DNA from: a virus
Lineage: Duplodnaviria; Heunggongvirae; Uroviricota; Caudoviricetes
Virus record (IMG/VR): IMGVR_UViG_2636416089_000002
DNA length: 17,336 bases
Direction: 5' to 3' (one strand)
Part shown: positions 1,324 to 9,446 of the stretch, piece after piece
Layout: each line of letters opens with the position of its first letter
Position numbering within the stretch: position 1 is the first letter of the stretch
Program-made: the position numbers and the translations under genes
Notes under the pieces: model-generated
What the model was told of the DNA's origin: nothing
The model's database searches: none
The model's input: only the letters and a program-made list of their open reading frames with translations

Positions 1324-2822
1324 TTATGATGATGCCGGTGCATTTATCTCCAGCACCAGACTTTCTATCTCAACGCCATACGCTGCATTTTTGGTAATAT
1401 CCGTCAGCGTCAGCGCATTCAGCCCCAGTGTCAGACTGTCTTTTATGACCTGGAATGCCGGGCCAGCCACTCCATTCAGTTTCGGAGTAACCGTGGCACT
1501 GCCGGCGGTGAACACCAGCTCCAGCGTCTGCCAGTCGTTACTGTAATTCCCGAACTCGCCCAACTTTGTGTTTCCGGCTTTCTTGTGATGCATCAGATTC
1601 AGTTTGCCGTCTGTGGTCTGGGTGAAGAACGACATCAGGAACGGGTTACCAGTCCCGGTCATCGCCACGACGTCAGGTAACGCTACATCGGTATAGCGGT
1701 TGCCATACGATCCGGAATAATGCTCCTGCGCGCCCATGAACTGAAATGTGTCGGGCGGTTTGATGATACCTGGTTTCCATTCGTTCTCGATGCCGCACCG
1801 TAATATCCTGATGCCGGAATATCCGGATCTTCTGCCGGTGCGTTAGTGGCGGTATTGACGCCGTTACCGTCTGTCATGAAGGGCACAAAATAAACGCCCT
1901 CACTCTCCCTGTTTTTATACCCGCCGTACACGGTGTCGTACTGGGTAGCGTATGTATTTTTCCAGTAATACGTCGTGTCACCACAAATCCACGGCACATT
2001 TACAGCACTACCACCATGACACTGCGCGTTAAACACAGTGAGGTCAGCACGAAACTGCTTCAGCATGGCTGTAAACAGCGCAGGTTGCTGTGCGTAGGTG
2101 GCGGCGTTCATGTCAAACTCTCCCTGCATCCAGCACACCGCCAGCAACACATTTTTCGGGTTCTTCTGTAATGCAGCTTTAGTGCGCGCAATCAGGTCCT
2201 GATATAACGGTTTACCCACACCCCAGCGTGCCGAATCCTGGCTGGCCCCCGCGTCCGCACTGAATGTCCCCTCCGCGCCCTTGGTGAATGCCGAACCACC
2301 ACGACAGCATGGTACCAGCAGGATCCCCGCGTTATTCGGGATATACGGGAGCAGTTTTTTGGCAATATGTAAGCCCTGGCCGACACAGCCGTACTGCCCT
2401 TTGCTCAGGTCTGCCTTCGGATGATTCAGCGTACTCATATCCTGCACATCATGCAGACAGTGGTCAGCCGGGATGATGTCGTTATACGTACAACTCTCTC
2501 CACCCGGAGTTACCGTGCTGCGGCGCGCCAGCTGTTTAATGCGCGGATCCGGAGCATCGTAAGAATCCGGTAACGGAAGCCCTTCACCGTAGGCCATGCC
2601 GTTGGACTGTCCGGCAAGCACAACCACGTAGAACCAGTCCGGCTCAGATGAAGGGCCGACCTGTGGATCTCCTTCAATAGCCACCGCCTGCATCAGTGTG
2701 TACGGCGTAATGGCAACCGGTCCGCCATATGGCTGCCAGCCCTCTTTCAGTTTGTGTGTCAGCTTTTCCGCAAGGTCTGACGGCGACGCCGCCCTGACAA
2801 CATCATAGTGTTTAAATGCCAT
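1324..2822 (-). pseudogene. nanS: Prophage sialate O-acetylesterase NanS-p (DUF1737 N-terminus plus SGNH/SASA esterase domain), apparently frameshifted
   Basis: 379-aa ORF (1683..2822) begins MAFKHYDVVRAASPSDLAEKL and carries the GQSN esterase motif. A 137-aa ORF (1324..1737) in another frame continues with a plausible C-terminal domain; its frame reads sensibly upstream to about 1800, so the frame change lies near 1800-1815. Confidence 0.7.
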
Positions 2823-3015
2823 GAATCCTCCCGGCCGGGATAATATTGTGAGTAAAATGAGGAGCGGGCTGAAGTCCGGAAGTTACAGGACAATGGCAGA
2901 AGAGAGACAATAGCCCGCAATACGAAAAAGGCCGCGCTATTGCGCAGAGTGATTACTGTCGGATATTATTCGCCAGCTGAAATATTACTTCACGTTTTGT
3001 TGTTTATTCCTTGCC

Positions 3016-3044
3016 GCCCGCGTCTCCCTGCGCGGGATTTTTTT
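3016..3044 (+). terminator. Candidate plus-strand intrinsic terminator in the tRNA/nanS gap
   Basis: CCCGCG-tctccctg-CGCGGG followed by ATTTTTTT on the plus strand. Confidence 0.45.
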
Positions 3045-3050
3045 GTCCAT

Positions 3051-7614: not shown

Positions 7615-8519
7615 GCGGCAACACCTCCGATACGAGAACGGTAGCTGGGCCAGTTAAACGACAACCAGTTGCGCCCGCCATCGGTGATCCTGTCGGCAAT
7701 CCGGGGACTGATGAACGCCCACAATTCTTCCGGTGAAAGGTTGCTGATCAGGATAGTTGGCAAAATACCCTCATACCGGGCATTGATAATTTCCTGCAAA
7801 ATGGCCATTTCAGCCGCACTGCCAAACTGAACGCCGACTTCGTCGACAATCAGCAAATCCAGTGACGCATAATGCTCAATGACGTCATCCGCTGTTTTTT
7901 CACTGTCATTCCGCCAGCAGTTTTTCACAGCCCGGGTAAGGCGCATCACGTCGGTGATCTCCACACTGGCCAGATAGTTACGGATGATGTGTTTTGCCAT
8001 TGATACCGCCAGATGATTTTTCCCGGTACCGCAACTGCCGGTCATAACAAGACTGGTACCGTTCTCCAGCATATCTGGCCAGTTCTCCGCATAGCGGCGA
8101 CAGGCCGCAAGATTTCTGGCTGCGTCAGGATTAACCTCCAGATAATTATCAAACTCGCAGTCCCGAAAACGCAGAGCAATTCCGGCGTTATCAGTCAGTT
8201 CTTCCGCCTTGAGGGACGACAGTTCCATGGTCAAATCACTGGCCTCAGCGATCAAGCAGTCAGGGCAGCATGAAATTTTTTCTCTGTCCTCGCCATTACG
8301 ATCGATCCACACCAGTATATGCGTACGATATTTACCGTGTTTTTCGCAATATCCGCGACCTTCACGCATCAGGCAGGAACGATAAGGCCATGGCTTTTCG
8401 CCCTTCTGAGCAAATGCAATCTCTGCCCGTAACTCATCCATTTCTGCCCGTAACTCATCCATTCGCGCCTGTAGTCTTGTTTGTTTCTCACGTTGGTCAA
8501 TCGTCATCATCGCTGTCAC
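7611..8519 (-). CDS. DnaC-like helicase loader (IstB-type AAA+ ATPase)
   Basis: Walker A GSCGTGKNHL, Walker B LLIVDEVG. GTG start at 8519; alternative ATG at 8510. Confidence 0.85.
   Translation of the reverse strand: MTAMMTIDQREKQTRLQARMDELRAEMDELRAEIAFAQKGEKPWPYRSCLMREGRGYCEKHGKYRTHILVWIDRNGEDREKISCCPDCLIAEASDLTMELSSLKAEELTDNAGIALRFRDCEFDNYLEVNPDAARNLAACRRYAENWPDMLENGTSLVMTGSCGTGKNHLAVSMAKHIIRNYLASVEITDVMRLTRAVKNCWRNDSEKTADDVIEHYASLDLLIVDEVGVQFGSAAEMAILQEIINARYEGILPTILISNLSPEELWAFISPRIADRITDGGRNWLSFNWPSYRSRIGGVAA
8422..8463. repeat. Perfect 21-bp tandem duplication (2 copies) inside the DnaC-like gene
   Basis: tctgcccgtaactcatccatt occurs twice back to back; in frame, giving MDELRAE-MDELRAE. 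Confidence 0.9.
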
Positions 8520-8520
8520 C

Positions 8521-9446
8521 TCAGAATGTCAATTTGTTACTGGATTTACCGAATTTGTCAGACATGGCTCCCAGGCCAGCCAGGACATCGACCTGTCGCT
8601 GTCGCCCACCTCCGTGAGCGGCTGGCTGTTGCCAGTAATCTTCGAAGTGACGATCGGGTCCAAAGAACGTCGCAGCCTGCTTCACGAACTGTGTGCCGGT
8701 ATTTCCTGTAGCACGTACCCAGGCGGCATACCGCTTCACGCCATCAAGCATGGTCTCCGGTTTTATTCCCTCCCTGATACGGGCTTTCCAGGCTTTGAAG
8801 GCTGCTGACTTGGAATTGCCACCAGCACGTTTGGGATATTCCTGCCAGGCCTGTTCAAATTCCGGTGAATATTCCTGTCTGGCAGAACGCGCTGGTGCAG
8901 ACGCGTCAGCGGATGCGCCAATATCTTGCGGTTCATGTTTTGAATTTACTGGTGGTTCATGTTTTAAACCTTGTGGATCTGGAGTCAGATTCTGAAGGGT
9001 CAAACGCGTATTTTTGCCAGAATCTGAAGGGTCAAACACGCCTGAACATACAGATTCTGACGGTTCAGATTTTGAAGGTTCAGAATCTGAAGGGTCACGT
9101 AATACTGAAAGTCTGCGCTGCTGTTTCAGTTCTGCAACCTTATCCCGCTCAGTTCTGGCAAGCTGCTCAAGCCGATCAGCATTCAGATGATAAAGATTGG
9201 ACGTATTACGGTTACCTTTGCGGCGTGACTGACGCGTCAGCCAGCCATCAGCCTCCAGTTCGGAGATTGCCGTTCTGACTGTACTTTCTCCCAATCCAAG
9301 CTGTCGACATATGGTTTCAACACCCGGGTAGCACACCCGTCATCATTCGAATAATCAGCCAGGCGCGCCATAATCATCAGTTTTGCACCTTTGACGCCAT
9401 ATGCTGCGCATGCATCCCAGACATTACCGAGGATCTTGCTACTCAT
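8521..9446 (-). pseudogene. Replication initiator (O-like, N-terminal HTH) containing the origin iterons; apparently frameshifted near 9330
   Basis: 69-aa ORF (9237..9446, MSSKILGNVWDACAAYGVKGAKLMIMARLADYSNDDG) and the 271-aa ORF (8521..9336, starting at GTG) read as one protein if a single base is restored near 9325-9335. Confidence 0.65.
8949..9117. repeat. Iteron array, candidate phage replication origin inside the initiator gene
   Basis: TCAGAwTCTGAAGGGTCAaac at 9004-9024, 9037-9056 and 9098-9117 with degenerate copies between; ggttcatgtttt twice at 8949-8984. Confidence 0.65.

Follow-up and report, generated by a model that had tools for sequence, protein, structure and literature searches.

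The stretch of DNA analysed here (the window) is 17,336 nucleotides long and is the whole of contig JONA01000033.1 from the E. coli draft assembly GCA_000711565.1. Judged by gene identities from Pfam and PHROGs, together with synteny with the intact relative NZ_CM128581, it covers an stx-negative lambdoid prophage from the immunity and replication regions through Q, methyltransferase and tRNAs to nanS-p and lysis; the contig end falls inside the prophage, and the integrase and morphogenesis genes lie off the contig. The immunity region contains an intact 218-aa LexA-family/Peptidase_S24 protein (12986-13639) and a 69-aa cro-like gene divergent from it, and the replication module downstream gives matches to PHROG 270, 50 and 19, the initiator member being frameshifted. 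Complete genomes have the order DUF968, Q, a 65-aa gene, methyltransferase, tRNAs, nanS-p, lysis. The Q gene expected upstream of the late and lysis genes in a lambdoid prophage is reduced here to 14 N-terminal codons, and as the missing Q is one of the lesions itself, it is no argument against lambdoid ancestry. The features concerned are as follows:

1324-1692, minus strand: what is left of the nanS-p C-terminus (residues about 496-617 of the intact protein, covering part of the DUF6645/lectin-like domain), in a frame different from that of the N-terminal fragment
Between 1692 and 1693, no strand: junction of the 355-bp nanS-p deletion, with ATA at 1693-1695 as ambiguous microhomology (3 nt), from alignment to NZ_OZ547136
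1683-2822, minus strand: nanS-p N-terminal fragment, 377 native residues (DUF1737 and SASA esterase core), then Pro-Met-stop
3312-3561, minus strand: three intact phage tRNA genes (Arg-TCT, Arg-TCG and a CAT anticodon, the last read as Met by ARAGORN but as Ile in the PGAP annotation of relatives), from ARAGORN and the annotation of relatives
3611-3943, minus strand: DNA methyltransferase C-terminal part, intact residues 240-349 with the FxGxG AdoMet motif DFFMGSGST, in the shifted frame
3941-3942, no strand: methyltransferase lesion, TG on the plus strand versus CTC in intact alleles, a complex change of net -1
3937-4659, minus strand: N-terminal part of the DNA methyltransferase, in which 239 native residues including motif IV DPPY are followed by His and a stop (240 aa)
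4810-4863, minus strand: remnant of the 65-aa late-region gene, its last 17 codons and stop
4860-4863, no strand: junction of a 698-bp deletion, with 4 nt of microhomology (ATGG on the coding strand)
4860-4901, minus strand: start of antiterminator Q (14 codons), now out of context as part of a 44-aa ORF (4767-4901)
4919-5908, minus strand: DUF968/HNH-like protein, intact
6214-7614, minus strand: DnaB-like replicative helicase, intact (PHROG 19, 466/466 residues aligned)
7611-8510, minus strand: DnaC-like helicase loader, intact (PHROG 50, 100% identity across 299 aa)
8521-9336, minus strand: O-like initiator, shifted-frame part, residues 38-308 of the intact 308-aa protein
9336-9338, no strand: initiator lesion, CCC on the plus strand versus CCCC in intact relatives (coding GGGG to GGG, after codon 37)
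9237-9446, minus strand: initiator N-terminal fragment, 37 native residues followed by 32 out-of-frame residues

The original prediction held that nanS-p, the methyltransferase gene and the initiator gene are each split into two overlapping ORFs by a frameshift, and it proposed alignment to intact homologues as a check. This alignment, to relatives of 99.2-99.9% identity, located each lesion at base level, four in total (nanS-p, methyltransferase, O-like initiator and Q). The paired ORFs are indeed present on the minus strand for all three genes, and the claim that both halves give sensible protein also stands, the halves matching the same families in Pfam. Calling all three frameshifts was inaccurate: nanS-p is broken, not by a small indel at about 1800-1815, but by the 355-bp deletion at 1692|1693. 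The initiator break was correctly placed in 9320-9340, and that of the methyltransferase, expected in 3937-4066, exists at the extreme edge of this interval. The peptides HYQLVSTY and QYVELQSEY, previously read as similar products of two frames at the methyltransferase junction, are not so: the intact protein reads ...KSHYQLVSTYSELSRQYVELQSEYKNL..., and the two peptides are therefore adjacent and derive from adjacent DNA rather than from two frames of the same DNA. A fourth lesion, the 698-bp deletion removing antiterminator Q, lies within the same 1324-9446 interval and had been overlooked.

For nanS-p, the 379-aa fragment (ORF 1683-2822) is matched in Pfam by DUF1737 (about 1e-16 to 7e-16) and SASA (6e-13), that is, the N-terminal DUF1737 and the SASA (SGNH) catalytic domain are present. 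Using the intact protein (617-618 aa), tblastn places residues 1-377 at 2822-1692 and residues 496-618 at 1695-1327, the deletion taking out codons about 378-495 of the 617-aa protein. The remnant ORF (1324-1737) matches DUF6645 at 1e-13 over profile positions 32-115 only, and a contiguous C-terminal lectin-like (DUF6645) domain is lost through the deletion and the shifted frame. Gone with the 355 bp are the linker and the beginning of the C-terminal lectin-like domain, and what follows is out of frame, so that the product would at best be an esterase without its carbohydrate-binding domain. The three-domain layout of NanS-p and a proposed role of the C-terminal lectin-like domain are described in PMC10462455 and bioRxiv 10.64898/2026.04.10.717836. 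Passages of PMC10462455 give variants of 636-657 aa, or with an IS insertion, and do not mention the 355-bp deletion allele.

The intact initiator matches PHROG 270 'replication initiation protein' at 5e-81 and carries HTH_36 at residues 23-70; the window ORF 8521-9336 also has an HTH_36 match in Pfam, and a repeat search revealed an iteron-like array inside the gene at 8986-9103. Over 971 bases the indel is the sole difference from NZ_CP145655. Loss of one nucleotide from the G4 run truncates the O-like initiator after codon 37, inside the winged-helix DNA-binding domain, and replication would then not start from the prophage's own origin unless an initiator were supplied in trans. That loss of the initiator would block autonomous replication, as had been proposed, is a reasonable expectation; this and the other functional consequences given here are drawn from lambda biology.

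The intact methyltransferase of relatives has 349 aa. In the window, the ORF at 3937-4659 covers positions 1-107 of Pfam PF01555 and the ORF at 3611-4066 positions 111-219, with tblastn placing residues 240-349 at 3943-3614. At 3941-3942, CAGCTCACTG is replaced by CAGTGACTG (net -1), and a premature TGA stop follows on the coding strand at 3937-3939. Motif IV and motif I are consequently not found in one polypeptide: the 240-aa fragment carries DPPY, the shifted one DFFMGSGST. This complex change splits a beta-class N6/N4 DNA methyltransferase, the DPPY motif falling on one side of the break and FxGxG on the other, and probably no active phage methyltransferase is made. The exact 30-mer over the lesion is absent from metagenome, species-representative genome and viral contig collections, and look-ups of the 240-aa and 89-aa fragments did not find the frameshift outside the source contig. 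A 610-bp metagenome scaffold (L016) was considered as a second carrier, since it shares the 89-aa ORF, and was rejected; it diverges before the junction and is uninformative on the lesion. With the change from CTC to TG a palindrome arises, CAGT-G-ACTG, and the mutation may have come about by natural template switching. On paper a quasi-palindrome template switch does yield the observed sequence, if not by a clean arm-to-arm conversion, and this is speculation only.

With the 698 bp, Q has lost codons 15-126 and the 65-aa gene its first 48 codons, and the terminator-bearing stretch between the two genes is gone as well; tblastn places residues 49-65 of the 65-aa product at 4863-4813. Q occurs in NZ_CM128581 but not in the window; the intact Q gene product matches Pfam Phage_antitermQ at 1e-52. 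On the early side the window is 100% identical to JONB01000038 up to the Q junction, after which 698 bp are missing. The deleted segment contains a terminator-like hairpin, and a promoter scan of it gave no consensus sigma-70 site; from lambdoid gene order we infer that pR' was lost together with it. This apparently microhomology-mediated deletion of almost all of Q and of the downstream terminator-bearing region is the most damaging of the lesions for lytic growth, and the late genes would not be switched on by Q antitermination.

The lesions differ in their distribution. The nanS-p junction 30-mer is found in five further draft assemblies (JONB01000038, JNRE01000064, JNRR01000096, WUMY01000073 and JNRF01000137), which span at least two accession series, with the qualification that one sequencing method may lie behind all of JONA/JONB, and one behind all of JNRE/JNRF/JNRR. 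The initiator frameshift occurs, gap-free relative to the window, in at least four other contigs (JONB01000038, JNRE01000058, WSHO01000055 and a Logan assembly of SRR1186796, which could be the read set of one deposited assembly), the contig being present in 9 samples for WSHO01000055 and in 5 for the Logan assembly. Because these two lesions recur in other assemblies, both are, on sequence comparison, inherited mutations, and assembly noise is ruled out for them. The methyltransferase frameshift and the Q deletion are each private to JONA01000033.1; both rest on this one draft contig, and only reads can confirm them. JONB01000038 has the initiator and nanS-p lesions as in the window, yet retains an intact Q and a 349-aa methyltransferase, while WSHO01000055, of a sister lineage, carries a further 4.1-kb deletion by which its initiator and methyltransferase genes are joined. 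The four junctions are all absent from 5,426 complete E. coli genomes (40-mers over the nanS-p and Q deletions, exact 70-mers over the methyltransferase and initiator lesions), all support for the shared lesions coming from draft or Logan assemblies; 20 complete genomes match the initiator junction 70-mer and 0/20 are frameshifted.

We consider it highly probable that the prophage was inactivated stepwise by ordinary spontaneous mutations, the nanS-p deletion and the initiator frameshift being the two older, shared lesions and the methyltransferase change and the Q deletion the two younger, private ones. Since the lesions are of different kinds and are differently distributed among related assemblies, they are independent events, as was originally claimed. 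The suggestion of a decaying cryptic prophage gains support from the same observations and from the further 4.1-kb deletion in WSHO01000055, whereas the alternative of indel errors in the assembly fails for nanS-p and the initiator, which recur elsewhere, and survives for the methyltransferase frameshift, found nowhere else. The remaining genes align with NZ_CM128581 at full length in a single frame or differ solely by mosaic replacement, and no further indels relative to relatives were found in the 17 kb among the genes compared. With the cI-like repressor, DnaB, DnaC-like and lysis genes undisrupted, the prophage is still early in domestication or decay.

It is possible, if unlikely, that the methyltransferase frameshift and perhaps the Q deletion are consensus errors: reads from at least two lambdoid prophages in the same cell, alike in their late regions, would have been merged. 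The two lesions occur in the source contig only and lie in or at the edge of 3390-4860, the sole stretch that differs (23 substitutions, 3 indels) from an otherwise 100% identical JONB contig; since co-resident lambdoid prophages carry repeated copies of this late region, the consensus there could be chimeric or mixed, and related draft assemblies have contig breaks in the same region. The methyltransferase junction itself resembles the L008 allele on one side (...CAGTGAC) and the L006/L002 alleles on the other (ACTGTATG...), joined one base out of register. Against this, the window allele is near that of L002 on both sides of the lesion, with no clean two-allele switch, and k-mer or overlap assemblers normally do not join over 2-4 nt of shared sequence, which is all that is present at both private junctions. 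The contig is not generally error-prone either, its nanS-p and initiator lesions being reproduced in independent assemblies; apart from the one indel there are 0 differences in the 971 bp shared with NZ_CP145655, and identity to JONB is 100% over 7,271 bp.

It is improbable that the lesions are real but belong to two prophages, the contig being a path through a repeat graph whose late half (1-4860) comes from a different co-resident prophage. In GCA_000704525, the nanS-p deletion allele does lie behind a different Q (PF03589) and RusA (contig L007) with the frameshifted initiator on a separate contig (L017), and the window starts in the lysozyme gene no more than 15 bp from the end of JNRE01000064, which suggests a repeat boundary. 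However, JONB01000038 joins the same early and late regions through an intact Q, and complete genomes keep the same gene order from DUF968 to lysis.

More doubtful is the idea that the shared lesions are selected states and not neutral decay, with the initiator frameshift locking the prophage in the chromosome of this lineage and a functional 379-aa NanS-p moved between backbones. Such a 379-aa NanS-p would consist of a capsid-binding DUF1737 and the esterase core without the lectin domain, spread between prophage backbones by recombination.

It is hardly credible that the split genes are functional by design, through programmed ribosomal frameshifting, repeat-tract phase variation or two-subunit enzymes, although sensible sequence is kept in both halves of each gene, the 271-aa initiator ORF starts with GTG exactly at the lesion and the truncated nanS-p allele occurs in more than one prophage context. 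Programmed -1 frameshifting was rejected, as neither -1 site has a slippery heptamer of the form X XXY YYZ (coding strand: initiator, GAC GGG TGT; methyltransferase, AGT CAC TGA) and homologues in complete genomes are single ORFs, the split arrangement not being conserved. Phase variation would need a tract, and at the lesions there is no long homopolymer or tandem repeat, the initiator run being of 3 versus 4 G and the methyltransferase lesion not in a repeat. Intact alleles are the rule, as is clear from the junction-matching complete genomes for the initiator and from the methyltransferase variant occurring in none. Carriers of the lesions are about 100% identical and so offer no sign of selection. 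The internal initiator GTG is not preceded by a Shine-Dalgarno-like sequence, and a protein starting at residue 38 would lose the first third of HTH_36. The reading that all disruptions are sequencing indel errors in an intact prophage is largely refuted and extremely improbable: the source is a draft, and at two of the lesions the length changes by a single base, in one case within a short homopolymer, but the initiator and nanS-p lesions recur gap-free in other accession series and in a Logan re-assembly, deletions of 355 and 698 bp are incompatible with base-calling errors and the remaining genes of the 17 kb are free of indels relative to relatives.

Stepwise inactivation by spontaneous mutation, the preferred reading, has its main value as a correction and annotation aid: the proper annotation for nanS-p, the methyltransferase gene and the initiator gene is as pseudogenes in a defective prophage, and the missing Q together with the broken initiator would predict a non-inducible element. 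The division into shared and private lesions provides a short series of decay steps that could be dated within one E. coli lineage, and the lesions are possible lineage markers.

The best matches among phage records cover 56-60% of the window at 88-94% identity and include Stx2a phages such as Stx2_EH2246, phiP27 and Escherichia phage PhiR49_2. Common to the window and to Stx-converting phages or PhiR49_2 are the helicase, DnaC and replication-protein module, the DNA methylase, the tRNAs and nanS-p; unlike in Stx-converting phages, no stx operon is located between the tRNAs and nanS-p, where there is an STnc100 sRNA match, and unlike in Stx phages and PhiR49_2, Q is missing and the genes for the initiator, the methylase and NanS-p are broken. 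Compared with NanS-p of Stx and non-Stx prophages (933W NanS-p; phi24B gp84 / vb_24B_21), the order of DUF1737, SASA and C-terminal domain is the same, as is the place directly upstream of the holin, whereas the window allele is without codons about 378-495, has lost the frame and has coding capacity for DUF1737 and SASA (379 aa) only. Initiators of the lambda O and P22 gp18 type have the origin inside the gene. The window initiator resembles them in its N-terminal winged-helix domain, internal iteron-like array and downstream helicase loader and helicase, a likeness supported by the PHROG 'replication initiation protein / O-like' matches, and differs by the frameshift after codon 37, its origin and iterons being predicted.

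Defective (cryptic) lambdoid prophages are found in E. coli K-12, and multiple lambdoid prophages in EHEC/EPEC strains. What is described here is ordinary decay of a defective lambda-like prophage, with nothing mechanistically new. The window is like these elements in its LexA-family cI-like repressor, cro-like gene, O-like initiator, DnaC-like and DnaB-like proteins, DUF968, Q, late and lysis genes, and, as in them, inactivation would have come about via small indels and microhomology deletions with vertical inheritance within a lineage. It differs in that only part of the prophage is on the contig and decay is early, with four lesions in 17 kb and most genes undisrupted.

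Three genes of the prophage, all on the minus strand, are each split into a pair of overlapping open reading frames (ORFs), as the original prediction had stated, and the halves of each pair match complementary parts of a single Pfam family. The ORF map gives these pairs as follows:

1324-1737 and 1683-2822, minus strand, nanS-p
3611-4066 and 3937-4659, minus strand, DNA methyltransferase
8521-9336 and 9237-9446, minus strand, replication initiator

According to PHROGs and Pfam, intact nanS-p consists of DUF1737, SASA and DUF6645, the intact methyltransferase is a PF01555 N6/N4 methylase and the intact initiator belongs to PHROG 270 ("replication initiation protein") with an HTH_36 domain. 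Lesion positions were obtained by aligning each region against its nearest intact relative. All three genes proved to be broken, although one of the three proposed frameshifts, that in nanS-p, is a 355-bp deletion and not a small indel.

By exact look-up of the 240-aa methyltransferase fragment, the window was matched to contig JONA01000033.1 (17,336 bp, draft assembly GCA_000711565.1), of which it is the entire sequence. Mosaic relatives are numerous (megablast, 5,426 complete E. coli genomes; identity 94.7-97.7%), each covering at most 89% of the window, and the top phage-record matches, namely PhiR49_2, Stx2a-converting phages and phiP27, reach a coverage of 56-60%. In the intact relative NZ_CM128581 the genes are ordered, from the late side, as follows:

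lysozyme, YdfR, holin, nanS-p (618 aa), three tRNAs
DNA methyltransferase (349 aa), a 65-aa gene, antiterminator Q (126 aa), DUF968, an 85-aa gene
DnaB-like helicase, DnaC-like ATPase, replication protein, small genes
two Rha-family genes, a cro-like gene, LexA-family repressor, early-left genes

When the proteins of this relative were compared with the window by tblastn, Q was not found, and each of the other genes compared could be aligned end to end without a change of frame, apart from mosaic differences, which concern the initiator allele and the C-terminus of an HTH protein (13746-14162). The window lacks stx; the 490 bp that separate the tRNAs from nanS-p, the stx position in Stx phages, hold a full-length match to the STnc100 sRNA family (139 bits, 3045-3235, minus strand), a locus annotated by PGAP in relatives as a partial pseudogene. 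The tRNA at 3486-3561 (minus strand) is called Met with a CAT anticodon by ARAGORN, and its homologue in relatives tRNA-Ile by PGAP; under the latter call it would be the common phage tRNA of ileZ type. Over the immunity and early-left region (about 12000-17336), the GC content drops from roughly 0.52 to roughly 0.41.

In nanS-p, the junction lies at 1692|1693, about 110 bp from the originally proposed site (1800-1815), and the deletion takes out codons about 378-495, as judged against a 617-aa gene with 99.7% identity elsewhere. Since 355 is not divisible by three, the 122 codons left at the C-terminal end lose their frame and the product comprises 377 native residues followed by Pro-Met-stop. 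Such a fragment would retain the capsid-binding DUF1737 and the SASA core and lose the lectin-like domain, which two reports present as a probable carbohydrate-binding module assisting activity (PMC10462455; bioRxiv 10.64898/2026.04.10.717836).

The initiator has lost one G on the coding strand (GGGG to GGG; CCC on the plus strand, 9336-9338) after codon 37, within the HTH_36 domain (residues 23-70), this being the only difference from NZ_CP145655 across 971 bases. Inside the gene, at 8986-9103, five copies of CAGAWTCTGAAGGKTCA (about 17-23 nt, spaced 15-33 nt) form an iteron-like array, apparently intact, which probably serves as the phage origin. By analogy with lambda, an initiator truncated in its DNA-binding domain would be unable to open this origin, and replication would depend on an initiator supplied in trans.

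In the methyltransferase, intact alleles read CAGCTCACTG on the plus strand where the window has CAGTGACTG (3938-3946), a change of CTC to TG at 3941-3942 (net -1) followed immediately by a TGA stop on the coding strand; the split leaves motif IV (DPPY) and motif I (FxGxG) in different fragments. The peptides originally noticed as similar in the two frames follow one another in the intact protein (...KSHYQLVSTYSELSRQYVELQSEYKNL...); they are encoded by adjacent DNA and are therefore unrelated to the frameshift.

More consequential than any of these lesions is a deletion in Q, overlooked in the original prediction though within its interval. JONB01000038, a contig of a sister assembly, matches window 12130-4860 at 100% identity, continues with 698 extra bp (its positions 7272-7969) and rejoins at 4863, with a 4-nt microhomology at the junction. 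These 698 bp comprise Q codons 15-126 (in Pfam, the intact protein hits Phage_antitermQ at 1e-52), an intergenic region with a terminator-like hairpin and codons 1-48 of the 65-aa gene. Loss of Q would abolish late-operon antitermination, and lambdoid gene order suggests that the pR' late promoter was lost as well.

Recurrence was assessed by exact-protein look-ups and then exact junction k-mers. The nanS-p deletion is found in five more draft assemblies (JONB01000038, JNRE01000064, JNRR01000096, WUMY01000073 and JNRF01000137), two of these contigs matching the window end to end at 100% identity, and the initiator frameshift in JONB01000038, JNRE01000058, WSHO01000055 (this contig occurs in 9 samples) and a Logan assembly of SRR1186796 (5 samples), without gaps relative to the window. 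As they recur, these two lesions are inherited lineage alleles and not noise, which disposes of assembly error as their cause. All four junctions are absent from the 5,426 complete genomes, and neither search found the methyltransferase frameshift or the Q deletion outside the source contig; JONB01000038 has both genes intact. The two contigs diverge solely at 3390-4860 (23 substitutions, 3 indels), and both lesions fall within this stretch or at its edge; it resembles either a patch acquired by recombination from a different lambdoid prophage or a repeat whose consensus is imperfect. A single recombination with another prophage, importing the patch and causing the deletion, fits these data, as does an imperfect consensus in the repeated late region. 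That the methyltransferase frameshift, seen in one contig, is an artefact, possibly along with the Q deletion, we nevertheless consider rather unlikely, and less likely for Q: just 2-4 nt are shared at the junctions, an overlap that assemblers would not usually join across, and real events are therefore favoured. Functional readings of the splits (programmed frameshifting, phase variation, a designed split) are unsupported, as neither the methyltransferase nor the initiator site has a slippery heptamer, the homopolymer run is just 3-4 nt, homologues in complete genomes are single ORFs and no Shine-Dalgarno-like sequence precedes the internal GTG at 9336 of the initiator.

WSHO01000055, from a related lineage, carries, besides the initiator lesion, its own 4.1-kb deletion (junction at contig positions 8439-8447), which joins window 8702 in the initiator gene to window 4589 in the methyltransferase gene and removes the initiator C-terminus, the DnaC-like gene, DnaB, DUF968, Q and the methyltransferase N-terminus. 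With lesions unlike in kind and in distribution among assemblies, the pattern is that of a prophage passed on vertically and decaying step by step, which bears out the decaying prophage originally suggested; decay of this sort is commonplace, and the phenomenon is well established.

In addition, a module of C4 antisense RNA and isrK sRNA is present in two tandem copies (10464-10652 and 11120-11308, minus strand; Rfam gathering-level hits) within the 5' parts of the long Rha/ASH ORFs 9855-10706 and 10703-11365, which are probably over-extended. The antirepressor-like genes at these modules may be under RNA control, by analogy with the RNA-controlled systems P1/P7 immI and Gifsy isrK.
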